From positions 1 to 43,852 of IMG/VR virus record IMGVR_UViG_2563366881_000002: a DNA stretch of 43,852 nt; one strand, written 5' to 3'. Every line of letters starts with the position of its first letter. Within the stretch, counting starts at the first letter, position 1. Below, one piece after another: positions 1 through 43,852 of this stretch. The notes under the pieces were generated by a model. The model saw only the letters and a program-made list of their open reading frames with translations. It made no database searches and was not told the DNA's origin. Source of the DNA: a virus (taxonomy: Duplodnaviria; Heunggongvirae; Uroviricota; Caudoviricetes). Position numbers and translations under genes: made by a program.

Positions 1-1164
1 TTACGCCTTCTTTATATCCTCCATAATTCCACAGTGGGACATATTTGGGACATTATCACCAAAAATGTCGTCTATTTTCCTTGCATGCTCTGTCAAATGA
101 TTAGGCGCAAGGTGAGCATACCTACGAACCATTTCTATGGACTCCCATCCGCCCATTTCCTGAAGCACAGATAATGGGACGCCTGACTGGATCAGCCAGC
201 TTGCCCAGGTGTGTCTGAGGTCATGGAAACGGAAATCTTCAATTCCTGCACGACGACAAGCTGATAGCCATGATGTCTTGCTGTCGATGCGCATCTTCCT
301 GACCGCAGGCGTTGATGTTCCATCTGCTCGCTTAGCCGCCTTGGTATGTACAAACACCCATTTGTGATGCTTGCCTATTTGATCACGCAACACTTTACAG
401 GCGGTATCGTTCAGCGCCACACCAATGGCGCGGTTTGATTTGCTCTCTTCTGGATTCACCCAGGCAACTCGTCGCTGCATGTCGATTTGTTGCCATTCCA
501 GATTTATGATGTTCGACTTTCTCAGACCAGTTGCCAGCGCAAACTTGACGACAGATTTCAGTGGTTCGGGGCACTCATCAATAAGGCGTTTTGCTTCCTC
601 CTTTTCCAGCCATCTGACTCGCTTGTTTCTGACCGCTGGTATCTTGATGACAGGCGCTTTTTCCAGCCACTTCCAGTCGCGTTCTGCAGCACGGAGAATG
701 GCCTTTATCATGGCAAGATGCTTTGCCTTTGTCTGAGTTGATACTGGCTTTGGTTCATAAACAGGCGGTTCTTTACCTTTCCTGATGGCGGCCTGAACTT
801 TCTGTTTCCATATTTCTTTCGTCTTTCTGTTATGCATTCTGCTTACAGCAGAGTAAATCTTTGCCTCCGAGATATCTTTAAGCCTTATACCCTCAAAATG
901 TTCAAGCCAGAACTCAATCCGGCTTTTATCTGAATCGAGAGATTTTTTATCAGCTTTTTCCTCAAGCCATCTTAGGCAGGCCTCTTCAAAAGTGACATCA
1001 GGTAAATCCCCTAGCTTTTCTACTCGCCAGAGTTCTGCTTTTCGCTTGTCGTGCAACTCCTGAGCTTGCCGCTTGTCCTTTGTGCCAAGAGATTCCTTAA
1101 TTCGTTTCCCGCCCGGGAGCGAATACGAGGCATACCATATTTCATTTCTGCGGAAGAGTGACAT
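1..1164 (-). CDS. int: phage tyrosine integrase (site-specific recombinase)
   Basis: 387-aa ORF; C-terminal tyrosine-recombinase signature (..[20 protein letters not shown]..); SD AGAGGAAAG 5 nt before ATG; first gene of prophage followed by excisionase. Confidence 0.9.
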
Positions 1165-1391
1165 TTTCTTTCCTCTGTTATGCCATCACCTGCGCTCACC
1201 TGGACAGTATGCAGCGGAGACTGAAGCGCCGCAATGCAAGCTTGCCGTGTTGTGAGGTAAGGAGATTTTGGCTTGGTTGGATCTTTACGTGTTGCCTGTA
1301 GGCGGCCTGTTCGTATCCAGTTGGTGGCGGTTGGTCTGGATATCTTAAGAAACTGACAGGCCTCATCGAGTGTGAGGCTGTATGGCTCCAT
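1020..1391 (-). CDS. xis: excisionase-family DNA-binding protein (HTH_17-like), overlaps int start
   Basis: Internal ATG giving [31 protein letters not shown]..., a typical excisionase/AlpA-type HTH; immediately upstream of int on same strand. Exact extent uncertain. Confidence 0.55.
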
Positions 1392-1696
1392 TATTTCACC
1401 TCTTGCTGTGTCATTGTTGAAAAATGGATACCAGCTCGTTGCTGCCAGACGATCCAACCGAGAGTCATATCCCATGCCATGTATTCGTTATCGCCGTTTT
1501 TTACTCTCCGACGATCTACTAAGTCACCGAAACGCTTTTCCATGAATAATTCATAGGCTTCGCGTTCATCTGGCTCTACTTCCAGAGATACGAGTGCGAT
1601 TTCATAAGCACGGCGCTCAATATCGTCTCGAACCTCTAGGCTGCTGATTCGTTCTTTGATTTCTTTAATCAGTTCTTTATTGGTAAATGTGGTCAT
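1391..1696 (-). CDS. yfdT: hypothetical early protein (YfdT-like, 101 aa)
   Basis: Compact 101-aa ORF, start overlaps stop of upstream gene (ATAATG coupling); same length and position as yfdT in CPS-53-type early operon (recalled, not searched). Confidence 0.45.
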   Translation of the reverse strand: MTTFTNKELIKEIKERISSLEVRDDIERRAYEIALVSLEVEPDEREAYELFMEKRFGDLVDRRRVKNGDNEYMAWDMTLGWIVWQQRAGIHFSTMTQQEVK

Positions 1697-2058
1697 TATG
1701 CTCCAGCCTCCGGTGCTTTTGGCATTACTGCCCAGTGAGTGATATTGACGTTTTCAAGGTCCCCGACCTGAAATGTCCACTGCCATTCTCCGGTTTCTTT
1801 TTGTCCCCAGGTGTACCAGAGAGAACGCCAGCCAATCAGCCAGCCTTCTCCATTAGCATCAAATAACAGAACACTTTCATTTGCTGGTGGCAGTTCAGCT
1901 GACACTGGTATTATTTTGTTTTCCAGTGCCGCACATTTAGCTTCAAGCGCGTCGAATTTACGTAACAGGTACTCAGCATTTGTTTCATTCACTTTCAGAT
2001 CTCGCGGTACACATTTCCCGCGAAGAAACCCTTCCATTTCGAAAACATTCATGCGCAT
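1696..2058 (-). CDS. yfdS: hypothetical early protein (YfdS-like, 120 aa)
   Basis: 120-aa ORF translationally coupled to neighbours; length and position match yfdS of CPS-53-like prophages (recalled). Confidence 0.45.
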   Translation of the reverse strand: MRMNVFEMEGFLRGKCVPRDLKVNETNAEYLLRKFDALEAKCAALENKIIPVSAELPPANESVLLFDANGEGWLIGWRSLWYTWGQKETGEWQWTFQVGDLENVNITHWAVMPKAPEAGA

Positions 2059-2585
2059 TTGCGTAACTCCGATAAATCGTTAAAACGTTCCATAAACATC
2101 CCGTAGACATGACCCGGTGCCAGTGGAATCACGTTGAACATCTCTGTTGCCGGGATGCCTTCCAGTACAGGCCAGAAAGAGCCATCATCAAGCCCGAGAT
2201 CGCGGCGTTCGGTTGCCAGCATGATGAGATCGGCATATTTCACGGGTGTACTCATAACTGGGGGTAACCCGTATTTCTCACGGATTACGGCGTCTATTTT
2301 TTCTTCCATCCGTTTATAGTCAGGAAGAAGGCGTTTCAGCGGCGCGGGGATGTCCTGGCAATACGCTTCTGTTGCATCATGCATTAACGCTTCAAAAGCA
2401 AATTCCTGCGGCACCAGCTGGCTGCAAAGCACCGCATGTTGGGCGACACTGTAGAAGTGTGAAAGATGACCGGCAAAGCGACAGATATTTGAAAGGGAAA
2501 CCGCGATATCGTTAATCACGATGTCGTCTTTATTTATCCTGTCATAATAAAAATGCTTCCCGGAAAAAGTTTTAATAAATGACAT
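2049..2585 (-). CDS. yfdR: HD-domain phosphohydrolase (YfdR-like 5'-deoxynucleotidase), 178 aa
   Basis: Start MSFIKTF with SD GGAGAA; contains HD motif (..ALMHDATEAY..); 178 aa as in YfdR. Confidence 0.7.
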   Translation of the reverse strand: MSFIKTFSGKHFYYDRINKDDIVINDIAVSLSNICRFAGHLSHFYSVAQHAVLCSQLVPQEFAFEALMHDATEAYCQDIPAPLKRLLPDYKRMEEKIDAVIREKYGLPPVMSTPVKYADLIMLATERRDLGLDDGSFWPVLEGIPATEMFNVIPLAPGHVYGMFMERFNDLSELRKCA

Positions 2586-2712
2586 TTTGTTCTCCGCGTA
2601 TATGTGCTGCACCACGCTGAATTCTGGTAAAAGGAAGCCCTCACCATCCGGCGATTATTGAGTCAATTACGTTTCCATAAATGCCCCCGCAGGGGCATTT
2701 GCAGTAATGAAA

Positions 2713-3537
2713 TCAGGCGGTGAAAGTACCAATAAAGGTTTCTACTTTGCTGTCTTTGAATTTCTCAACAAGCAGATCACGAAATTCGTTAGCCATTTCT
2801 TCCTGCACCGCCTCCAGCTGAATAATGCGCAGAACCAGTACAGGACGATCGCCAGTGATAATGCTGAGGCGTAATTTAAATGGACGTTCTTTCAGACCTT
2901 CAAACGGAACGCATTTAAATTCAAATGCCACTGGCATAATATCTTTGGTTTTCGCTTCGACAGACTCCATCAGGGAGCGTTTGCCGCTGAAGTCATTATC
3001 TTCAAAATCAGCGGTCTGGTTTGCTTCAATCGTGATTTTACGGACAGCCGCAGCCGCTTTTGTTGCCTGAATAGCGTCACCATTAGCATCAAAGCCCACA
3101 AGGTAGTCGGCCCAGTCTTCAATCCATTCTGCCAGTGACTTCTGGGAATGACGCTCGCCATTAACAGACAACAGAGCAGAGAACGGTGCTGTCTTTTTCA
3201 GTTTGAGAGTGGAGGTGTTATCTGCGTGACCTGGTTCATCAATAGTACCCAGGTTAAGCACACTGACGGCACGCATATTATCGGCATCGATAAAGCAGCG
3301 GGTGCCTTCATCTGCAAGATCTTTAGAATAACGGGTAAAATCATCGATGCTGGCAGTGGAAAGTGCACCACGGAAACGGAAGCGATTTAAATTAAATTTT
3401 TCCAGATCATGAATGCGGAAATTCTCAGGCAATGCCACAGCATCGGCACCAATCTTACTGATAATTTCATTAACACCCTGAGCAGAAATAAGGGCATGGA
3501 TTTGATTAATTGCGGTTGCGTCTAAGTTCTGAGACAT
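2713..3537 (-). CDS. yfdQ: DUF2303-family phage protein (YfdQ-like), 274 aa
   Basis: 274-aa ORF with SD GAGGA 7 nt upstream; length and neighbourhood match YfdQ (recalled). Confidence 0.6.
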
Positions 3538-5335: not shown

Positions 5336-6412
5336 TTACTTTGTAAGTTCTAGAACTCGTTGAGCCAGCCCTTTAAATTGTTCGTTAAAGGCGTCTCTGC
5401 TTGATTTCATTGTATTTAAGGCATGCCCAAATTGCCCTGAATCGCGAATTTGCTGATCACTGATGGAGAAAACAGGTGTCGCTAGTTGTTGGCTTATTGC
5501 GATTAATGAGTTGAAATCGGAAATATGCGCAAGATCATAGGCTGATAAATCTCCACTGACTGTTGTTTTGTTAATTGCATGTTGCACTTTATCTCGTGGA
5601 ATTATGCAGGTAATTTTTTCTAGATTTGGCACTAAGATCGAATCAACAGCATCACGGATAGCTGCCATCCATTTTTCGAAAGATTTTACAGGTGCTCCTT
5701 TACGCGGCCTGTATCTCTGCTGAATCATACCTAGAAACTGCGGTGCATTTTTAATTGATTGTGAAGAGTTACCATCATTATTTTCTTTAAATAATGCTAA
5801 TTCTTTGTGCCAGCGAGGTATATTTTTTGAGAGAGAGCGAATTGCTTGCCAGCAAAAAAAGTCTGGAGCTACAGGTACGATAAAATAGTCACTTGACATG
5901 AGAACTACTTCATTTAAACCTCCAACATTAGGGCTGAGATCATAAAGAATGTAATCAATATTATTCTTCATGGCGATTAGCTGTAATATTTTTGGCAGGT
6001 TCCCTGGTATATTTCTTGTAGCAGGAATACCAGCAGCAATTTTTAGAGAAACACTTATCTGTGAATCTAAGTCCGAAACATCTAAATGTCCGGGAAGAAG
6101 CAGAAGGTTTTCATGCAGTGTAGGGTGTAATTTTCCCGTTTCTTTTTCAAGGTATGCTTCAGGTTGTCCGCCATTAATCAAATATTCTACAATAGGTCCA
6201 AGAGTTAAGTTATCTCTGCTAGAATAAAAAGAATCTAAACCCTCATCAATCTTTTCATAGCCAAGAACCATTCCTGTTAGATTACATTGCGAATCAAGGT
6301 CAACCATCAATACTTTCTTGCCTTCATCCGCAAGTGCCCATCCAAGATTGAAGGTTGTTGTGGTTTTACTTACCCCACCTTTATGATTAAAAAAACAAAT
6401 TGATTTTGTCAT
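5336..6412 (-). CDS. ParA/MinD-family P-loop ATPase with extended C-terminal region (358 aa), rex-position cargo
   Basis: Deviant Walker A ..NHKGGVSKTTTTFNLG.. and ParA-type motif ..VLMVDLDSQCN..; SD AGGA upstream; AT-rich; sits immediately downstream of cI on same strand with own AT-rich upstream region. Confidence 0.8.
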   Translation of the reverse strand: MTKSICFFNHKGGVSKTTTTFNLGWALADEGKKVLMVDLDSQCNLTGMVLGYEKIDEGLDSFYSSRDNLTLGPIVEYLINGGQPEAYLEKETGKLHPTLHENLLLLPGHLDVSDLDSQISVSLKIAAGIPATRNIPGNLPKILQLIAMKNNIDYILYDLSPNVGGLNEVVLMSSDYFIVPVAPDFFCWQAIRSLSKNIPRWHKELALFKENNDGNSSQSIKNAPQFLGMIQQRYRPRKGAPVKSFEKWMAAIRDAVDSILVPNLEKITCIIPRDKVQHAINKTTVSGDLSAYDLAHISDFNSLIAISQQLATPVFSISDQQIRDSGQFGHALNTMKSSRDAFNEQFKGLAQRVLELTK

Positions 6413-6582
6413 ATTTCTCTATCCTTTCGACCCCCAGCATATTGTAATTTACGCTGGGTGATTATTTTATATTGTTAATGATAATGTTTAATAAAAATAA
6501 GAGAGTAAAACAACTATTAGTAATAGCACTTGCTTGATAAATATTATTTTTTCACCTTTAGTTCTATAGTCTAAACGAAGAA

Positions 6583-7344
6583 CTAAAGCCGGTTGTATTT
6601 AATTGATTCGTGTATCAATGCTTTGCCCATAACATAAAGTTGATCTTGGGACTTCTCATCAATGTACCATTTCTCATAGGCTGGATTATCCGAAAGAACG
6701 GCGAGTTTGTTGCCTTGCATTTGTAGACGTTTAACGTGGAACGTCTTACCATAAACGAAAGAGTAAACACCATCAGTTTGGAAGTTGCGAACAGAAATGT
6801 CGACAAACAGTCGATCTCCGGAAACTAGAGTAGGGGACATGCTGTCGCCATTTACAGTCATAACTTTAATATCATCTTGAGAACGATTACCGAAAAGAGA
6901 ACGGGCATGCTCTGTTGTGAACTCAATGGCGTAGAGCACATCAACATAGTCTGAAAGCATATAGGTTCCAGGTCCTGCGCTAACGCTAAGATCCAAAACT
7001 TCTATCCTGTATACATCGGGTTTTGTTGGATTGGGGATGCTTGCCATTTCCTTACATCCTTCTCTCTCGCCAACACCATATTCTAAATATGAAGCTGATA
7101 CCCCCAGAGCCAATGCAAGTTTATTCATGACAGAGGCACGAGGCTTCGCAGCGCCGATTGTGTATCGCCGCGCCATTTCATATGTAACGCCCACAAGACT
7201 TTTGAGTTGGGTGACAGAAATTCCCTTGTTTGTCATTAGCTCGTTTAGTCTCTTGGCGAAATCTGGATACTTCTGTTCTTCTACCATAGGTAGAAGGTTA
7301 CTCGCATCACATACGCTAGTCATTTCTATTTTAAGTAGTTGCAT
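6583..7344 (-). CDS. cI: CI-like prophage repressor (N-terminal HTH_XRE, C-terminal S24 LexA-like peptidase domain)
   Basis: HTH (..ISVTQLKSLVGVTYEMARRY..), S24 catalytic Ser in ..NGDSMSPT.. and Lys in ..HVKRLQ..; divergent from cro-like gene. True start may be internal (ATG at 7323 or 7287); no SD at any candidate, so possibly leaderless. Confidence 0.85.
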   Translation of the reverse strand: MQLLKIEMTSVCDASNLLPMVEEQKYPDFAKRLNELMTNKGISVTQLKSLVGVTYEMARRYTIGAAKPRASVMNKLALALGVSASYLEYGVGEREGCKEMASIPNPTKPDVYRIEVLDLSVSAGPGTYMLSDYVDVLYAIEFTTEHARSLFGNRSQDDIKVMTVNGDSMSPTLVSGDRLFVDISVRNFQTDGVYSFVYGKTFHVKRLQMQGNKLAVLSDNPAYEKWYIDEKSQDQLYVMGKALIHESIKYNRL

Positions 7345-36036: not shown

Positions 36037-39000
36037 ATGGGTAAAGGCAGCAGTAAGGGGCATACCCCGCGCGAAGCGAAGGACAACCTGAAATCATCCC
36101 AGATGCTGAGCGTGATAGACGCCATCAGTGAAGGGCCGGTTGAAGGTCCGGTGGACGGATTAAAAAGTGTGCTGCTGAACAGTACGCCGGTGCTGGACAG
36201 TGAGGGGAATACCAATATCTCCGGTGTCACGGTGGTTTTCCGGGCAGGTGAGCAGGAGCAGACACCGCCGGAGGGATTTGAATCCTCCGGCTCCGAGACG
36301 GTGCTGGGTACGGAAGTGAAGTACGACACGCCGATTACCCGGACCATCACGTCGGCAAACATCGACCGTCTGCGCTTTACCTTCGGTGTGCAGGCACTGG
36401 TGGAAACCACCTCAAAGGGTGACCGGAATCCGTCGGAAGTCCGCCTGCTGGTTCAGATACAGCGTAATGGTGGCTGGGTGACGGAAAAAGATATCACCAT
36501 TAAAGGCAAAACCACCTCGCAGTATCTGGCCTCGGTGGTGGTGGATAACCTGCCGCCGCGCCCGTTTAATATCCGGATGCGCAGGATGACGCCGGACAGC
36601 ACCACAGACCAGCTGCAGAACAAAACGCTCTGGTCGTCATACACCGAAATCATCGATGTGAAACAGTGCTACCCGAACACGGCACTGGTCGGCGTGCAGG
36701 TGGATTCGGAGCAGTTCGGCAGCCAGCAGGTGAGCCGTAATTATCATCTGCGCGGGCGTATTCTGCAGGTGCCGTCGAATTATAACCCGCAGACGCGGCA
36801 ATACAGCGGTATCTGGGACGGAACGTTTAAACCGGCATACAGCAACAACATGGCCTGGTGTCTGTGGGATATGCTGACCCACCCGCGCTACGGCATGGGG
36901 AAACGTCTTGGTGCGGCAGATGTGGATAAATGGGCGCTGTATGTCATCGGCCAGAATTGCGACCAGTCGGTGCCGGACGGCTTTGGCGGCACGGAGCCGC
37001 GCATCGCCTGTAATGCGTACCTGACCACACAGCGCAAGGCCTGGGATGTGCTCAGTGATTTCTGCTCGGCGATGCGCTGTATGCCGGTATGGAACGGGCA
37101 GACGCTGACGTTCGTGCAGGACCGACCGTCGGATAAGGTGTGGACCTATAACCGCAGTAATGTGGTGATGCCGGATGATGGCGCGCCGTTCCGCTACAGC
37201 TTCAGCGCCCTGAAGGACCGCCATAATGCCGTTGAGGTGAACTGGATTGACCCGGATAACGGCTGGGAGACGGCGACAGAGCTTGTGGAGGACACGCAGG
37301 CCATTGCCCGTTACGGTCGTAACGTCACGAAGATGGATGCCTTTGGCTGTACCAGTCGGGGGCAGGCACACCGCGCCGGGCTGTGGCTGATTAAAACAGA
37401 ACTGCTGGAAACGCAGACCGTGGATTTCAGCGTCGGCGCAGAAGGGCTTCGCCATGTACCGGGCGATGTCATTGAAATCTGCGATGATGACTATGCCGGT
37501 ATCAGCACCGGCGGGCGCGTGCTGGCGGTAAACAGCCAGACCCGGACGCTGACGCTCGACCGTGAAATCACGCTGCCATCCTCCGGTACCACGCTGATAA
37601 GCCTGGTTGACGGAAGTGGCAATCCGGTCAGCGTGGAGGTTCAGTCCGTCACCGACGGCGTGAAGGTGAAAGTGAGCCGTGTTCCTGACGGTGTTGCTGA
37701 ATACAGCGTGTGGGGGCTGAAGCTGCCGACGTTGCGCCAGCGCCTGTTCCGCTGCGTGAGTATCCGTGAGAACGACGGCGGCACGTATGCCATCACCGCC
37801 GTGCAGCATGTACCGGAAAAAGAAGCCATCGTGGATAACGGGGCGCACTTTGACGGCGACCTGAGCGGCACGGTGAATGGCGTCACGCCGCCCGCGGTGC
37901 AGCACCTGACCGCAGAAGTCACCGCAGACAGTGGGGAGTATCAGGTACTGGCGCGCTGGGACACGCCGAAGGTGGTGAAGGGGGTGAGCTTTATGCTTCG
38001 CCTGACCGTGGCAGCGGATGACGGCAGTGAGCGGCTGGTCAGCACGGCCCGGACGACGGAAACCACATACCGCTTCACGCAACTGGCGCTGGGGCGGTAC
38101 ACGCTGACAGTCCGGGCGGTAAATGCGTGGGGACAGCAGGGCGATCCGGCGTCGGTATCGTTCCGGATTGCCGCACCGGTAGCACCGTCGCGGATTGAGC
38201 TGACGCCGGGGTATTTTCAGATAACCGCCACGCCGCATCTTGCCGTTTATGACCCGACGGTACAGTTTGAGTTCTGGTTTTCGGAAAAGCGGATTACCGA
38301 TATCAGGCAGGTTGAAACCACAGCGCGCTACCTTGGCACGGGGCTGTACTGGATAGCCGCCAGTATCAATATCAAACCGGGCCATGATTATTACTTTTAT
38401 ATCCGCAGTGTGAACACCGTTGGCAAATCGGCATTCGTGGAGGCCGTCGGTCGGGCGAGCGATGATGCGGAAGGTTACCTGGATTTTTTCAAAGGCGAGA
38501 TAGGGAAAACCCATCTGGCTCAGGAGCTGTGGACGCAGATTGATAACGGTCAGCTTGCGCCTGACCTGGCTGAAATCAGGACGTCCATTACGAATGTCAG
38601 CAATGAAATCACGCAGACCGTCAATAAAAAACTGGAAGACCAGAGTGCGGCAATCCAGCAGATACAGAAAGTTCAGGTTGATACAAATAATAACCTGAAC
38701 AGCATGTGGGCCGTGAAACTGCAGCAGATGAAGGACGGACGCCTTTATATTGCGGGTATCGGAGCCGGTATTGAGAATACGCCAGCAGGTATGCAGAGTC
38801 AGGTGCTTCTGGCTGCTGACCGGATTGCGATGATTAATCCTGCGAATGGCAACACAAAGCCGATGTTTGTTGGTCAGGGCGATCAGATATTCATGAACGA
38901 CGTGTTCCTGAAACGCCTGACGGCTCCGACCATTACCAGCGGCGGTAATCCTCCGGCATTTTCCCTGACACCGGACGGGCGGCTGACGGCGAAAAATGCC

Positions 39001-39516
39001 GATATCAGCGGTAACGTGAATGCGAACTCCGGGACGCTCAACAACGTCACGATTAACGAGAACTGTCGGGTTCTGGGAAAATTGTCCGCCAACCAGATTG
39101 AAGGCGATCTCGTTAAAACAGTGGGCAAAGCTTTCCCCCGGGACTCCCGTGCACCGGAACGGTGGCCATCAGGGACCATCACCGTCAGGGTTTATGACGA
39201 TCAGCCGTTTGACCGGCAGATTGTTATTCCGGCGGTGGCATTCAGCGGCGCTAAACATGAGCGGGAGAATAACGATATTTATTCGTCATGCCGCCTGATA
39301 GTACGGAAAAACGGTGCTGAAATTTATAACCGTACCGCGCTGGATAATACGCTGATTTACAGTGGTGTTATTGATATGCCAGCTGGTCGCGGCCACATGA
39401 CGCTGGAGTTTTCGGTGTCATCATGGCTGGTAAATGACTGGTATCCCACAGCAAGTATCAGCGATTTGCTGGTTGTGGTGATGAAGAAAGCCACCGCAGG
39501 CATCAGTATTCGTTGA
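36037..39516 (+). CDS. J: central tail fibre / host specificity protein J
   Basis: 1159 aa, lambda gpJ-like throughout (27 aa longer than recalled lambda J). Confidence 0.95.
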
Positions 39517-39536
39517 AATTGTTATAACCCATATAA

Positions 39537-39562
39537 GGGCGCCAGAAATGGCGCCTTTTTTA
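39537..39562 (+). terminator. rho-independent terminator after J
   Basis: GGGCGCC-AGAAAT-GGCGCC hairpin followed by TTTTTTATT. Confidence 0.6.
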
Positions 39563-39585
39563 TTGCAGAAAAGCGAGAGGTAATT

Positions 39586-40185
39586 ATGCGTAAAGTTTGT
39601 GCAGCCATTTTGTCCGCAGCCATCTGTCTGGCCGTATCCGGTGCGCCTGCATGGGCGTCTGAGCAGCAGGCCACGCTGAGCGCAGGGTATCTTCATGCCC
39701 GTACGAACGCTTCCGGCAGCGATAATCTGAACGGGATTAACGTGAAATACCGTTATGAGTTTACGGACACGCTGGGGCTGATTACGTCATTCAGTTATGC
39801 CAACGCTGAAGATGAGCAAAAAACGCATTACAGCGATACCCGCTGGCATGAGGATTCCGTGCGTAATCGCTGGTTCAGCGTGATGGCGGGGCCGTCTGTG
39901 CGCGTGAATGAATGGTTCAGCGCGTATGCGATGGCGGGTATGGCTTACAGCCGTGTTTCGACTTTCTCCGGGGATTATATCCGCGTAACTGACAACAAGG
40001 GGAAAACGCACGATGTGCTGACCGGAAGTGATGACGGTCGCCACAGCAACACGTCTCTGGCGTGGGGAGCTGGCGTGCAGTTTAACCCGACCGAATCCGT
40101 GGCCGTTGACGTCGCTTATGAAGGCTCCGGCAGCGGTGACTGGCGTACCAACAGTTTCATCGTGGGTGTCGGTTATAAATTCTGA
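39586..40185 (+). CDS. lom: Lom outer-membrane protein (Ail/Lom family beta-barrel)
   Basis: Signal peptide MRKVCAAILSAAICLAVSGAPAWA; C-terminal ..FIVGVGYKF; lambda lom position. Confidence 0.9.
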   Translation: MRKVCAAILSAAICLAVSGAPAWASEQQATLSAGYLHARTNASGSDNLNGINVKYRYEFTDTLGLITSFSYANAEDEQKTHYSDTRWHEDSVRNRWFSVMAGPSVRVNEWFSAYAMAGMAYSRVSTFSGDYIRVTDNKGKTHDVLTGSDDGRHSNTSLAWGAGVQFNPTESVAVDVAYEGSGSGDWRTNSFIVGVGYKF

Positions 40186-40211
40186 TTAGCCAGGTAACAC
40201 AGTGTTATGAC

Positions 40212-40238
40212 AGCCCGCCGGTTCAGGCGGGCTTTTTT
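40212..40238 (+). terminator. rho-independent terminator after lom
   Basis: AGCCCGCC-GGTTCA-GGCGGGCT hairpin followed by TTTTTTG. Confidence 0.6.
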
Positions 40239-40249
40239 GTGGGGTGAAT

Positions 40250-43200
40250 ATGGCAGTAAAGATTTCAGGTGTACTGAAAGACGGCACAGGAAAACCGGTA
40301 CAGAACTGCACAATCCAGCTGAAAGCAAAACGTAACAGCACCACGGTGGTGGTGAACACGGTGGCATCTGAAAATCCGGATGAAGCAGGGCGTTACAGCA
40401 TGGACGTTGAGCACGGCCAGTACAGCGTTATTCTGTTGGTGGAGGGATTCCCGCCGTCACATGCCGGGACCATCACCGTGTATGAAGATTCTCAACCCGG
40501 TACGCTGAATGATTTTCTCGGTGTCATGACGGAGGATGATGCCCGTCCGGAGGCACTGCGCCGTTTTGAACTGATGGTGGAAGAGGTGGCGCGTAACGCG
40601 TCCGCAGTGGCACAGGACACGGCAGCCGCGAAGAAGTCAGCCGGCGATGCCAGCACATCAGCCCGTGAGGCGGCAACCCATGCGACTGATGCTGCAGGCT
40701 CAGCACGCGCAGCCAGCACGTCAGCCGGACAGGCCGCGTCGTCGGCTCAGTCAGCGTCTTCCAGCGCAGGAACGGCATCAACAAAGGCCACTGAAGCATT
40801 AAAAAGTGCTGCCGCAGCAGAGTCCTCAAAAAGCGCGGCAGCCACCAGTGCCGGTGCGGCGAAAACGTCAGAAACGAATGCTGCAGCATCACAACAATCA
40901 GCAGCCACTTCTGCATCCACCGCGACCACGAAAGCGTCAGAAGCTGCCACCTCAGCCCGGGATGCGTCGGCTTCAAAAGAGGCGGCAAAATCATCAGAAA
41001 CGAGCGCTGCCTCGAGCGCCAGCAGTGCCGCTTCCTCGGCAACGGCGGCAGGAAATTCCGCGAAGGCCGCAAAAACGTCTGAGACGAATGCGGATAACAG
41101 CGCACAGGCGGCAGCAGACTCACAAACTGCATCGGCAAACTCCGCGACAGCAGCCAAAAAATCAGAAACCAACGCGAAAAATAGCGAGGCAGCAGCAAAG
41201 AGCAGCGAAACCAACGCTAAAGCCAGCGAAACTAATGCTAAATCCAGTGAAACAAACGCGGCGAAATCTGCGGCGGACGCACTTAATTATCGCAACCAGG
41301 CCCAGGGTATTGTTGGTACTAACATCGGTTTGGGATCATCACCGCGTGGTTGCTCTGACATCTCAGGAAATCCATCAGGTTATATTGGCTTTATGCGCAT
41401 CATGGCTGATGCAACAGGTTTCCCGTCTATTGCATCCGGTGAAAGCAGTCTTACGGGGTTTATTAGTCAGGTAGATGGAACTCCAGCGTATACAGGTGTA
41501 TTTCAGGGATGGACTACTCGCTCGCTTTATACCTATCGCTGGAGTCCGACAACAGGCCCGCAATGGACACGCCACGCTCGCAAAAATGAAGTGGACCGTC
41601 TTGACCAATGGAATAGCGAAACATGGTTATATAACCATGATAAATCCATGCGCCTGGGGTTAACCGGATCAACATGGGGGTGTTACAGCGACACACAAAA
41701 AAAATGGATACCACTTGATGTTTCTCATGGTGGCACTGGCGCAAATAGCCTTGATGACGCCAAAACTAATTTGCAAATCCCTGAGGGTGGATTAACAAAA
41801 GCGATGACCCTTAATGCCCCTGGTGGTGCAGTGGATGGCAAATACTACCCTGTCATAATAGACACATCCGCAATGAATGGGAGCGGTGCCATGTTATGTC
41901 CTGTTGAAATAAAAACAGCAGGAGGTCCGGCATCAAATCCGCTTAATAGTAACTCATTTTTTGGGTTCATTCGATGTGGTGGCTGGAGTGACGTTCGCGA
42001 TGTGGCTTACGGGTCATTTGTTTGCTATGAAAAAAATGAACTCGGGATACTTTGCATTAAAGCGTCGCAAAGAGATTATGCGCAGCATGTAGCTTTCTAC
42101 ATCCATAAAAGCGCTTTTCCTGTCGTTGTGCAAACTGGCTACAAGGCAAAAGTTAAGGTTCCAACAGAAGACTACGTAATTGGTGACAACGGGGTTAGAT
42201 ATAAGTTTGGTGTATCAACGTCAACGGAGGATAACGACAAGAACTTTGTTAAAAATGTTCTTGACTTCACTGGCGGTGAACATGGCTTCTACAGCAACCT
42301 TCCGTTCAGACAAGGGGTGTCAGAAAGGATTGCATTAACAAATGGCCTGAGTTTTGACAAAAATTTTACCGTCACTATTCCTATATTTGTAAACAATGGT
42401 CAGATTAAAGCAACACAATCTTTCACCGCGTACGGTACGGACGCTTCAAACAGAACATTTGTTTCTCAAAGATTACAATCCGAAGGAGGTCCGGTTGTCG
42501 ATCAAACTGAACTAAGGGCCGCTAACGCTTCTGGTGAAATTGTTGTCAGGGACATAAATAATTCAGGGAACAGTAAGTTCTTTAATTTTAACCTTGATGG
42601 TACCTTCAGTTCTTATCAGGGATTGGTTGTTCACACAGGGCAAAACTGGAGCACTCAACATACAGAGAATGTAAATAAGTTTAAGCCAATAGCAGGGAGC
42701 GCAGGCGGTCCTGACGGAACAATGGTTGTTGGCGGATTCCATGCTCAATTTAGCGGTAATTACGTCACACAATTCGCCGGTCGCAACTCCAAATTTTGGG
42801 CAAGAAGCTTTGAGGCTGGGGTTGATAAGGGATGGAAACGACTATTAACAGTAGACGATCTCAATTCATCTACCGATCTTGCTGTCAGGTCATTAACCAC
42901 ATCTAACCCGGTAAAATCTGGCGGAGGGCGGATTGATGTCCTTGGAAGCACGTCAGACTATAGCAAAATGGATTGCTTTGTACGTGGGTTTGATAGCACC
43001 GGTAATTCTCTCGCGTGGGCGTTGGGTTCATCAGTCGGCGTAAGTAAGATGCTGTCGCTAAAAAATTTCTTTAGCGGAGCTGAGATACTGTTAAATGGTA
43101 ATGACGGCGCGGTTCAACTCAAAACAGGTGCTGTTAACGGGGCTAAAGCGCAGGCGCTCACTATCAACAAGGATGAGGTTAACTCAACTGTTGATTTAAC

Positions 43201-43852
43201 TCTTACAAAACAAACAGGGACTGGCAATCGTTTTGTTTTACAGAACTTAGGTAATACAGAACTATCATTTGCCGCAAAAGTATGGGGATCAAGTGATCGA
43301 CAAAACGTTTTTGAGGTTGGAACGTCTGCTGCGTATCTGTTTTATGCGCAAAAAACGTCAGCAGGCCAGTTGTTTGATGTAAATGGCGCTATTAATTGCA
43401 CAACGCTGAATCAGTCATCAGACCGCGACCTTAAAGACGATATTCTCGTTATCAGCGACGCGACGAAAGCAATCCGTAAAATGAACGGATACACCTACAC
43501 GCTCAGGGAAAACGGGATGCCTTATGCTGGCGTTATTGCACAGGAAGTAATGGAGGCGATACCAGAAGCTGTGGGATCGTTTACTCATTATGGTGAAGAG
43601 TTGCAAGGTCCGACCGTTGACGGCAACGAGCTACGCGAAGAAACGCGCTATCTTAATGTTGACTACGCCGCCGTGACGGGCTTACTTGTTCAGTTCGCCC
43701 GTGAAACAGATGATCGCGTTACCGCGCTGGAAGAGGAAAACACAACGCTACGTCAAAATCTGGCAACAGCAGACACCCGGATCAGCACTCTGGAAAATCA
43801 GGTAAGCGAACTGGTTGCACTTGTCCGGCAGTTAACAGGAAGCGAACATTGA
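40250..43852 (+). CDS. stf: side tail fibre Stf, long variant with Ala/Ser-rich repeat shaft and C-terminal S74 intramolecular-chaperone domain
   Basis: N-terminus MAVKISGVLKDGTGKPVQNCTIQLKA.. as lambda Stf; long ..SAAATSAGAAKTSETNA.. repeats; C-terminal ..SDRDLKDDILVISDATKAIRKMNGYTYTLRENGMPYAGVIAQEV.. typical of S74-type auto-cleaving chaperone domains. Confidence 0.85.
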   Translation: MAVKISGVLKDGTGKPVQNCTIQLKAKRNSTTVVVNTVASENPDEAGRYSMDVEHGQYSVILLVEGFPPSHAGTITVYEDSQPGTLNDFLGVMTEDDARPEALRRFELMVEEVARNASAVAQDTAAAKKSAGDASTSAREAATHATDAAGSARAASTSAGQAASSAQSASSSAGTASTKATEALKSAAAAESSKSAAATSAGAAKTSETNAAASQQSAATSASTATTKASEAATSARDASASKEAAKSSETSAASSASSAASSATAAGNSAKAAKTSETNADNSAQAAADSQTASANSATAAKKSETNAKNSEAAAKSSETNAKASETNAKSSETNAAKSAADALNYRNQAQGIVGTNIGLGSSPRGCSDISGNPSGYIGFMRIMADATGFPSIASGESSLTGFISQVDGTPAYTGVFQGWTTRSLYTYRWSPTTGPQWTRHARKNEVDRLDQWNSETWLYNHDKSMRLGLTGSTWGCYSDTQKKWIPLDVSHGGTGANSLDDAKTNLQIPEGGLTKAMTLNAPGGAVDGKYYPVIIDTSAMNGSGAMLCPVEIKTAGGPASNPLNSNSFFGFIRCGGWSDVRDVAYGSFVCYEKNELGILCIKASQRDYAQHVAFYIHKSAFPVVVQTGYKAKVKVPTEDYVIGDNGVRYKFGVSTSTEDNDKNFVKNVLDFTGGEHGFYSNLPFRQGVSERIALTNGLSFDKNFTVTIPIFVNNGQIKATQSFTAYGTDASNRTFVSQRLQSEGGPVVDQTELRAANASGEIVVRDINNSGNSKFFNFNLDGTFSSYQGLVVHTGQNWSTQHTENVNKFKPIAGSAGGPDGTMVVGGFHAQFSGNYVTQFAGRNSKFWARSFEAGVDKGWKRLLTVDDLNSSTDLAVRSLTTSNPVKSGGGRIDVLGSTSDYSKMDCFVRGFDSTGNSLAWALGSSVGVSKMLSLKNFFSGAEILLNGNDGAVQLKTGAVNGAKAQALTINKDEVNSTVDLTLTKQTGTGNRFVLQNLGNTELSFAAKVWGSSDRQNVFEVGTSAAYLFYAQKTSAGQLFDVNGAINCTTLNQSSDRDLKDDILVISDATKAIRKMNGYTYTLRENGMPYAGVIAQEVMEAIPEAVGSFTHYGEELQGPTVDGNELREETRYLNVDYAAVTGLLVQFARETDDRVTALEEENTTLRQNLATADTRISTLENQVSELVALVRQLTGSEH

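Follow-up and report, generated by a model that had tools for sequence, protein, structure and literature searches.

Two ways of folding a tail fibre have been described in phages related to the locus considered here. The side tail fibre (Stf) of phage lambda, for which the limits of the collar and of the proximal coiled-coil stalk have been defined (PMC12617516), lacks an S74 domain and needs a separate chaperone, Tfa. In the fibre protein pb1 of phage T5, a C-terminal S74 chaperone is released by a Ser/Lys dyad, for which the role of the lysine has been described and in which the S1264A mutation stops cleavage (PMC4690869). It has been reported that related phages use either an intramolecular chaperone (IMC) at the C-terminus or a downstream Tfa (PMC11990801). 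Furthermore, functional particles are obtained when lambda Stf is joined by engineering to K1F gp17, an S74-bearing protein (PMC11338833).

The window analysed here, a stretch of 43,852 nucleotides, carries the full gene complement of a prophage-like element, integrase through J, and several genomes are identical to it over the first 20 kb. The uninterrupted plus-strand ORF that closes the window is the stf gene of an intD-type lambdoid E. coli prophage. It occupies the canonical J-lom-stf position of the lambdoid late operon, with J (36037-39516, GpJ domains) and lom (Ail/Lom, 39586-40185) upstream in an order identical to that of lambda, and the hairpin and T-run between lom and stf have a counterpart in phage mEp460 that is annotated as a rho-independent terminator. 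Over its entire length the product matches PHROG 6578 ('tail fiber protein'); a search of the protein against NCBIfam and a PADLOC search gave no match. The length of 1202 aa in the original prediction applies to the GTG start at 40244, which is also the start taken in the deposited mEp460 annotation, but not to the ATG at 40250 from which that prediction counted, where the product has 1200 aa. The ATG agrees with the start of lambda Stf (MAVKISG) and with the RefSeq annotation of a 99.9%-identical copy, and is preceded by GGGGTG; residues are numbered from it below.

We propose, with good confidence, that this protein joins a lambda-type Stf N-terminus to a non-lambda distal part and an S74 chaperone that would make a separate tfa dispensable, and that the combination arose through recombination. 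The collar, stalk, distal module and S74 domain (Table 1) were assigned by homology, whereas T5 pb1 and the K1F endosialidase serve as models for the mechanism outlined below.

Table 1. Positions of the stf gene, the adjacent hairpin and the domains and residues assigned in the encoded fibre.
Feature	Residues	Nucleotides	Strand	Remarks
Terminator-like hairpin plus T-run, between lom and stf		40212..40233	+	
stf, side tail fibre gene		40250..43852	+	1200 codons plus TGA; alternative GTG start 40244
Collar (tail-attachment) domain, lambda StfN type	1-91	40250..40522	+	PF08400, cryo-EM chain match
Segment homologous to lambda Stf	1-284	40250..41101	+	87% aa identity
Ala/Ser-rich heptad-repeat shaft, predicted trimeric coiled coil	102-345	40553..41284	+	
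Left recombination zone (putative), SETNAK heptads	285-345	41102..41284	+	resemble T5-like pb1 rather than lambda
Distal, presumed receptor-binding region of mature fibre	346-1056	41285..43417	+	
T4 gp34-like / S16 gp37-like motif directly before the predicted cleavage site	~1014-1056	43289..43417	+	
S74 intramolecular chaperone (144 aa), release predicted	1057-1200	43418..43849	+	PF13884
Ser1057 codon, predicted nucleophile; scissile bond Ser1056|Ser1057	1057	43418..43420	+	Pfam S74 profile position 1
Codon of Lys1062, the dyad's predicted general base	1062	43433..43435	+	
Long C-terminal helix, probable trimeric coiled coil within the chaperone	1139-1196	43664..43837	+	AF2

[quoted passage not shown] The profile PF08400 (phage_tail_N) is matched at all of its 134 positions by residues 1-134 (E 7e-71), and residues 1-94 match the StfN collar of Ur-lambda in the cryo-EM chain 9e7m_Ta (PDB 9e7m; E 3e-51). 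The similarity to lambda Stf, originally thought to cover about 130 residues, is real but extends to residue 284, so that collar, linker and the first ~180 stalk residues are held in common with Ur-lambda Stf; in megablast searches, the matches to most lambdoid phages end at nt 836-842 of the gene. Within this segment, shaft residues 102-284 are 87% identical to the lambda proximal coiled coil. The long Ala/Ser-rich repeats that had been pointed out are borne out, with Ala and Ser making up 56% of the shaft, an unbroken heptad register and a lag-7 autocorrelation of 0.43 vs 0.19 in shuffles (z = 10.5). However, the shaft is not a foreign insertion, because both lambda Stf and T5 pb1 carry such a shaft; most of it is, judged by homology, ordinary lambda Stf coiled coil. 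The shaft is also homologous to the N-terminal repeats of T5 pb1, in which heptads of the SETNAK type show about 55% identity to residues 166-358 of this protein. The mosaic junction thus falls inside the shaft, at about residues 285-345 and not at ~130, and a 21-nt tandem repeat is found at 41203-41259 within the same zone.

Beyond the junction, the resemblance to lambda ceases: the hinge, the distal coiled coil and the OmpC-binding tip of lambda Stf are missing, and no similarity was found between this protein and lambda orf-314 (distal Stf), in agreement with the expectation of a different receptor-binding tip. As far as sequence similarity goes, the closest relatives of the distal module outside the lambdoid phages are the lateral tail fibres of Nonagvirus FritzHoffmann (Bas20, QXV79286.1), with 74% aa identity over residues 240-1173 and 83% nt identity over 2.4 kb, and of Tequintavirus slur09, with about 52% aa and 74% nt identity; more generally, the module is shared with the lateral or L-shaped fibres found in virulent coliphages of the Nonagvirus, T5-like and rV5-like groups. 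Both fibres possess the dyad motif SSDR.LK, as does the protein analysed here, and the FritzHoffmann fibre also begins with an Stf-like N-terminal domain. Their N-terminal anchors are nevertheless divergent or different, and their chaperone tails are shorter (125 and 131 aa, respectively).

Directly before the predicted cleavage site, the motif at residues ~1014-1056 matches 4uxe (E 1.4e-8) and 6f45 (E 5.7e-8) in the PDB-sequence profile search. The distal region as a whole is large (residues 346-1056, about 710 aa) and unannotated, with no Pfam match to residues 345-860, and this size, together with the fact that S74 chaperones were first described on endosialidase tailspikes (in K1F the chaperone follows the catalytic domain), could suggest an enzymatic tailspike, with depolymerase or deacetylase activity on glycans, instead of a fibre that binds passively. 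We regard this as improbable, marginally more so than the relic reading of the S74 domain discussed below: the Pfam, NCBIfam and PDB sequence searches yielded no glycosidase, lyase or esterase match, annotations of the nearest relatives name lateral or L-shaped tail fibres, and the endosialidase beta-propeller of K1F gp17 has no counterpart in this fibre. In addition, close homologues are named 'pyocin knob domain-containing' by NCBI, which points to lectin-like knobs, and no enzymatic activity is known for T5 pb1, with the same type of chaperone (PMC4690869). For residues 345-890, a segment of what is an obligate intertwined trimer, the AlphaFold2 monomer model (24 sequences) has a mean pLDDT of 38 with only ~366-445 confident, and its Foldseek matches to R2-pyocin fibres (E 0.04-0.18) are not significant.

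For the fibre read as a binding protein, a change of host range, as suggested in the original prediction, is plausible, because the tip is unrelated to the OmpC-binding tip of lambda. A surface glycan, either O-antigen or LPS core, is the most likely receptor, which is the least firm of our assignments; that fibres of this kind bind O-antigen has itself only been inferred in published work (PMC8594841).

The C-terminus was correctly recognised as being of the S74 type. The domain search places PF13884 (Peptidase_S74) at residues 1057-1108 of 1200, with 47.3 bits vs a cut-off of 22, and the Ser/Lys dyad is intact: Ser1057 and Lys1062 align with Ser1264 and Lys1269 of T5 pb1 and with Ser911 and Lys916 of K1F in a three-sequence MAFFT alignment and in the same Pfam register. 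The link to T5 pb1 and K1F rests on this register and alignment, given that a profile search of the PDB with the family profile reached S16 gp37 (S74 region, E 5.7e-8) and T4 gp34 but not the T5 and K1F proteins. In T5 pb1 the released chaperone has 133 aa, compared with the 144 aa predicted here; the receptor-binding parts of the two proteins show no detectable similarity and the N-terminal anchors differ, with BLASTP finding only the heptad repeats shared and no counterpart of the bullet-shaped receptor-binding domain of pb1 (residues 970-1263). The 144-aa module is also found in the cultured lambdoid phages mEp460, Ayreon and PhiR70_1.

The main alternative to an active autoprotease is that the S74 domain is a non-cleaving relic, kept as a C-terminal cap or knob, with folding dependent on Tfa supplied in trans by other prophages. 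Most E. coli genomes hold several stf/tfa loci, so that tfa genes could act in this way, and the sensor residues that T5 and K1F have upstream cannot be recognised here. Specifically, the three-sequence alignment contains no alignable Asp/Arg pair for the T5 folding sensor, formed by Asp1239 and by Arg1250 of the neighbouring chain, which would be explained by the pre-cleavage segment being of the T4 gp34 / S16 gp37 type; Arg1017 and Glu1022 are invariant in the homologues, but at a spacing different from that of the T5 sensor. Structural comparison likewise gave no match to the solved S74 chaperones, although the models are monomers with low pLDDT: for residues 861-1200 (28-sequence alignment), the mean pLDDT is 57 and the S74 region lies below 50, and Foldseek against the PDB returned nothing at E <= 0.001, the best match being T4 gp34 (0.019). 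Even so, the order of elements in this model is as expected, with helices, a hairpin at 1108-1137 and the long C-terminal helix (helix 279-336 of the modelled segment), which can be compared with the T5 chaperone architecture (PMC4690869); this helix has a pLDDT of 64-85, whereas most of the domain is below 50, and its coiled-coil Pfam matches are sub-threshold. Several observations render the relic explanation unlikely. Across 28 homologues, with identities as low as 54%, neither Ser1057 and Lys1062 nor the SSDRDLKD motif around them varies, which would be unexpected in a relic, and the Pfam score is well above the threshold. Moreover, PhiR70_1, Ayreon and mEp460 propagate as plaque-forming phages with an equal arrangement, and a chaperone of the lambda tfa type fits a fibre tip that is missing here.

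Decay of stf in a defective prophage to a gene that yields no functional fibre, comparable to the frameshifted stf of laboratory lambda, is hardly credible: plaque formation by lambda does not require stf, and some host loci are indeed degraded (TUM1887 has pseudogenes in place of its tape-measure and J genes), but the 1200-codon frame is intact, the catalytic residues are conserved, the gene set of the window is complete and the gene is 97% identical to that of the viable phage mEp460.

The conclusion that no functional tfa follows the gene holds, although not on the argument originally given. The TGA of stf is the final three bases of the window, so the absence of tfa inside it is empty evidence. 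Seven related loci, namely four prophages and the three cultured lambdoid phages named above, support the conclusion that no functional tfa follows: in all seven, a 3' remnant of tfa of 42-45 codons, devoid of a start codon, begins 46 nt 3' of the stf stop. Thus, while lambda tfa is intact at 194 codons, these loci keep only the last ~43, and neither a canonical tfa downstream nor a missing dyad, the two observations named in advance as speaking against the original prediction, was found. The stub should be read as a recombination scar, neither a missing nor a broken chaperone. The FritzHoffmann and slur09 genomes lack a tfa remnant 3' of the fibre gene, and an origin of the post-stop spacer from the side of either phage was checked and ruled out. 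At each of the seven loci, one TGA precedes the stub, which is in frame with stf, and translational readthrough into it was considered and set aside, the loci sharing one junction by descent and the spacer carrying non-synonymous differences; that rare readthrough could append a Tfa C-terminal peptide is a more speculative idea.

The collar is the domain that fixes lambda-type side fibres to the tail tip. By analogy with T5 pb1 and K1F endosialidase, we propose that three chains would join through the C-terminal chaperone, which would template folding of the intertwined distal domain. After correct folding, Lys1062 would activate Ser1057, the Ser1056-Ser1057 bond would be cut and the 144-residue chaperone would depart, leaving residues 1-1056 as the mature fibre. 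The separate Tfa needed by lambda Stf would be dispensable because folding help is built in, and tfa would then have decayed to the start-less remnant. On the left, recombination would have taken place within the heptad-repeat DNA that lambda Stf shares with T5-type fibres; on the right, it would have taken place inside tfa. In infection, a glycan receptor would serve the reversible first contact, with gpJ still supplying the terminal receptor.

This gene is a natural counterpart of the lambda-K1F STF design, except that the engineered fusion point is at lambda residue 528, whereas the natural junction lies at ~285-345. The natural lambda-Stf/S74 family shows that the junction is placed in the heptad stalk, at about residues 285-345. 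It also provides three or more receptor-binding inserts that can be interchanged, of the mEp460, Ayreon and PhiR70_1 types. When delivery particles based on lambda are to be retargeted, fibres that bring their own chaperone are convenient parts, since a matching Tfa does not have to be transferred with them.

More tentatively, the locus might reflect a fairly recent exchange between temperate and virulent coliphages, in which the heptad stalk DNA, present alike in lambda Stf, T5 pb1 and Nonagvirus fibres, and the tfa stub acted as left and right homology arms moving a self-folding receptor-binding cassette, a scenario that we consider possible but rather less likely than a different history. 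It draws on the 2.4 kb that are 83% identical to the virulent FritzHoffmann. The fibre cassette is present at three or more chromosomal sites, the tfa alleles matched by the 3' ends of the stubs differ, and Ayreon and PhiR70_1 show exchanged central segments. If the scenario is true, the cassette could move between otherwise unrelated phages and between prophage sites, and the statement that E. coli phages show no temperate-virulent mosaics of recent origin (PMC3945230) would have to be qualified.

The predicted tail-fibre mosaic is thereby confirmed, but it is not unusual. The gene is already catalogued and present in cultured phages and is ordinary, not new: RefSeq holds a 99.9% nt identical copy, WP_086722883.1, named 'prophage tail fiber N-terminal domain and S74 family endopeptidase-containing protein', and mEp460 gp20 (AFM76057.1) shows 96.8% nt and 97.4% aa identity over the full length. 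Both copies have the same J-lom-stf context and downstream tfa remnant, with only point substitutions differing. A literature search found no paper characterising this particular fibre experimentally. To an annotator of genomes, this is a routine prophage gene that already has a name. It is present in nearly full length in 85 of 5426 complete E. coli genomes, and the places that match stf in an E. coli genome number two in the median and up to 14.

The side tail fibre gene (stf) of this lambdoid prophage encodes a mosaic in which, as the original prediction held, a lambda-type N-terminus is joined to a different distal part with an S74-type chaperone; the distal half and chaperone are of a type shared with virulent coliphages. 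The gene is a single long ORF on the plus strand with two possible starts, GTG 40244 (1202 aa) and ATG 40250 (1200 aa), and its TGA stop codon forms the final three bases of the window. ATG 40250 is the likelier start: translation from it gives the lambda Stf N-terminus MAVKISG, GGGGTG precedes it, and RefSeq uses it for a 99.9%-identical copy. The previously claimed length of 1202 aa thus holds for the GTG start but not for the likelier one. PHROG 6578 ("tail fiber protein") matches the protein end to end.

The integrase gene, the order of J and lom, and the ~100% identity of the first 20 kb to intD-type prophages of several E. coli genomes indicate that the window is a lambdoid prophage trimmed at gene boundaries, with the ORF where stf canonically lies. 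Between the integrase end and the stf stop there are 46,449 bp in EC1722-1 (NZ_CP081192.1) versus 43,852 bp here, and therefore this prophage differs by ~2.6 kb from the otherwise near-identical one of EC1722-1, somewhere within 20000-40250. The terminator-like hairpins around lom form a moron-like arrangement. A search of 39400-40400 yielded no sigma-70-like promoter; stf is presumably expressed via antiterminated late transcription. The long ORF antisense to J is very likely spurious given that the gene it overlaps has six confident GpJ Pfam domains.

Features around stf in the window
Feature	Position	Strand	Remark
Tyrosine integrase gene	start of window	-	
J	36037-39516		upstream of stf; all GpJ domains present
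625-codon ORF	36637-38514	-	antisense to J
Terminator-like hairpin	39535-39558		flanks lom
Ail/Lom gene (lom)	39586-40185		upstream of stf
Terminator-like hairpin	40212-40233		flanks lom
stf	40250-43852	+	side tail fibre
ORF over shaft	40524-41198	-	
ORF over shaft	40747-41214	-	
ORF over shaft	40806-41474	+	

The predicted S74-type C-terminal domain was borne out: PF13884 (Peptidase_S74, "chaperone of endosialidase") scores 47.3 bits over residues 1057-1108 (gathering score 22), and the Ser/Lys dyad is present. In a MAFFT alignment of C-termini with those of T5 pb1 and K1F gp17, both taken from their own genome records, Ser1057 and Lys1062 (motif NQS-SDRDLKDD) share columns with T5 Ser1264/Lys1269 and K1F Ser911/Lys916. 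The register of the Pfam profile is concordant, position 1 corresponding to Ser1057 and to T5 Ser1264, and position 6 to K1F Lys916. Furthermore, Ser1057, Asp1058, Leu1061 and Lys1062 are invariant among 28 aligned homologues (54-95% identity). In T5 pb1, Lys1269 activates the serine, the Thr1263-Ser1264 bond is cut and the chaperone is then freed, and S1264A blocks autoproteolysis (Garcia-Doval et al., PMC4690869). The analogy predicts a mature fibre ending at Ser1056 and release of a 144-residue fragment; very probably the fibre would mature by autocleavage through the Ser1057/Lys1062 dyad and need no Tfa. The T5 sensor residues Asp1239 and Arg1250, however, have no clear equivalent here. 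Ahead of the predicted cleavage site, ~45 residues are similar to a motif found in T4 gp34 (E 1.4e-8) and S16 gp37. An AlphaFold2 monomer of residues 861-1200 was poor (pLDDT 57) and had no significant Foldseek match; at this low confidence, the order modelled after Ser1057 (short helices, a long beta-hairpin and a 58-residue terminal helix) would fit the T5 chaperone, described as a coiled coil and a flanking alpha/beta part with long beta-hairpin tentacles (PMC4690869). Related phages have either a C-terminal intramolecular chaperone or a downstream Tfa (PMC11990801), and lambda Stf has been fused by engineering to K1F gp17, which bears an S74 domain, giving a working construct (PMC11338833).

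At the other end, PF08400 (phage_tail_N) covers residues 1-134 (E 7e-71), and residues 1-94 match the Ur-lambda Stf collar domain (cryo-EM chain 9e7m, E 3e-51). The long Ala/Ser-rich repeat of the original prediction occupies residues 102-345 (35% Ala, 21% Ser), comprising ~35 heptads in unbroken register, with a lag-7 autocorrelation of 0.43 versus 0.19 in shuffles (z = 10.5) and comparable figures for lags 14, 21 and 28. In Ur-lambda Stf, the collar (1-91) and linker (92-101) are followed by a proximal coiled coil at 102-393 (PMC12617516), and thus the greater part of the repeat shaft is ordinary lambda Stf. SETNAK-type heptads, found near the N-termini of T5 pb1 and its relatives, run from ~residue 285 onward, and non-lambdoid fibres begin to resemble the gene at the nucleotide level from nt 1075-1108; this places the left junction within the heptad-repeat stalk, roughly at residues 285-345. 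Accordingly, the N-terminus is lambda-type, as claimed, but the boundary at ~130 residues was misplaced; homology to lambda Stf extends as far as residue 284, at 87% identity. The DNA encoding residues ~285-345 is of low complexity and common to lambda-type and T5-type fibres, and residues 166-358 are ~55% identical to pb1 32-228. Lambda orf-314, the distal part of the lambda fibre, has no significant match in the query. The ORFs overlapping the shaft, analogous to the annotated "orf206b" of lambda (L003 5148-5768), are most likely a by-product of GC-rich repetitive codons rather than genes.

The distal half and chaperone derive from a common pool of self-folding lateral fibres on which virulent coliphages also draw. 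The virulent Nonagvirus FritzHoffmann has a lateral tail fibre gene with 83% nucleotide identity to nt 1108-3490 of the gene, and its counterpart in the T5-like slur09 has 74% identity to nt 1476-3483; for residues 240-1173, the amino acid identities are 74% and ~52%, respectively. Weaker relatives detected by tblastn are spread over 449 phage records, among them those of T5-like, rV5-like and Drexlerviridae phages. In FritzHoffmann, too, the fibre has an Stf-like domain at its N-terminus and the same dyad motif at its end, so the complete architecture is present in virulent siphophages as well. Pfam has no match for residues 345-860. NCBIfam and PADLOC gave no match, and an AlphaFold2 monomer of residues 345-890 was poor (pLDDT 38), with no significant Foldseek match. 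Close homologues are named "pyocin knob domain-containing S74 family peptidase" by NCBI. According to a proposal by the BASEL authors, made without direct proof, lateral fibres of this kind bind O-antigen glycans, which act as primary receptors but are dispensable (PMC8594841).

Given that the window ends on the stf stop codon, it cannot answer whether tfa is present, and the argument that none follows within it was empty; the absence of a separate tfa is nevertheless supported by the seven related loci, all of which carry a remnant instead of a gene. In EC1722-1, the closest genome (99.9%), a pseudogene without its N-terminus, annotated by RefSeq as "tail fiber assembly protein", starts 49 nt past the stf stop, with a second such fragment 1 kb further and ompT and envY next. 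The first fragment has counterparts at other chromosomal sites in TUM1887, AH04 and 47-1826, two of which adjoin an orphan pinQ invertase, and, unannotated, in the cultured lambdoid phages mEp460, Ayreon and PhiR70_1. It is the counterpart of the C-terminal ~43 residues of lambda Tfa (…LEIATEEE..LL..WKKYRVLLNRV.TS..PDIEW…). Without any in-frame ATG, GTG or TTG, it is a scar rather than a gene in all seven. Judging from these sequences, the right-hand recombination junction is inside tfa, in agreement with experiments in which lambda recombined with defective prophages inside stf and tfa (PMC3945230). The 3' ends of the stubs vary among loci and match different tfa alleles, suggesting ongoing recombination there.

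In all seven loci, the remnant lies in the stf reading frame with one TGA between (…GSEH*YPSS.EGGCS.YVQTVVELEIATEEE…; locus L001 9604-9786, also L002 and L006-L010), and the spacer contains a Shine-Dalgarno-like run, GAAGGAGG, without a start codon. This shared arrangement was probably inherited from a single ancestral junction and not selected. In the Qin-site copies of TUM1887 and AH04 (L006 and L007, both 6375-6965), pinQ directly follows the stub; it appears orphaned because the S74-type fibre end replaced the usual invertible stf-C/tfa segment.

The lambda-Stf/S74 fibre is already known, being catalogued and present in cultured phages; literature searches found no experimental study of this particular fibre. 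Part of the gene is matched in 4965 of 5426 complete E. coli genomes, chiefly through the lambda-type N-terminus, and in 85 of these 4965 one site spans at least 80% of it, with identity reaching 99.9%. RefSeq names the near-full-length copies [quoted passage not shown], and mEp460 carries the gene at 96.8% nucleotide identity, annotated as side tail fibre. Ayreon Stf (1252 aa) equals the query at residues 1-331 (94%) and 876-1200 (84%) and differs in the middle, and PhiR70_1 Stf (828 aa) equals it at 1-508 (94%) and 1015-1200 (77%); the SDRDLK dyad and 144-residue chaperone occur in all of these. Thus, receptor-binding segments are exchanged between conserved ends.

The fibre gene is found in prophages at three or more chromosomal sites (L001, L006, L008: the ompT-envY/DLP12 site, the Qin pinQ-ydfK site and near yodB); this and the differing stub 3' ends point to homologous recombination as the means by which the cassette moves. 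The heptad stalk and tfa stub may serve as homology arms by which a self-sufficient receptor-binding cassette passes between temperate and virulent phages. The resemblance of the cassette to a virulent phage is fairly high, and the evolutionary angle is the only mildly interesting one. A large set of ~853-residue proteins (P0151-P0202; e.g., P0194, phage mEp044 gene 112), encoded on ~54-kb phage-sized contigs, combines the distal module and S74 chaperone (56-61% identity) but lacks PF08400, pointing to another phage group whose fibre is attached differently or made of two proteins.
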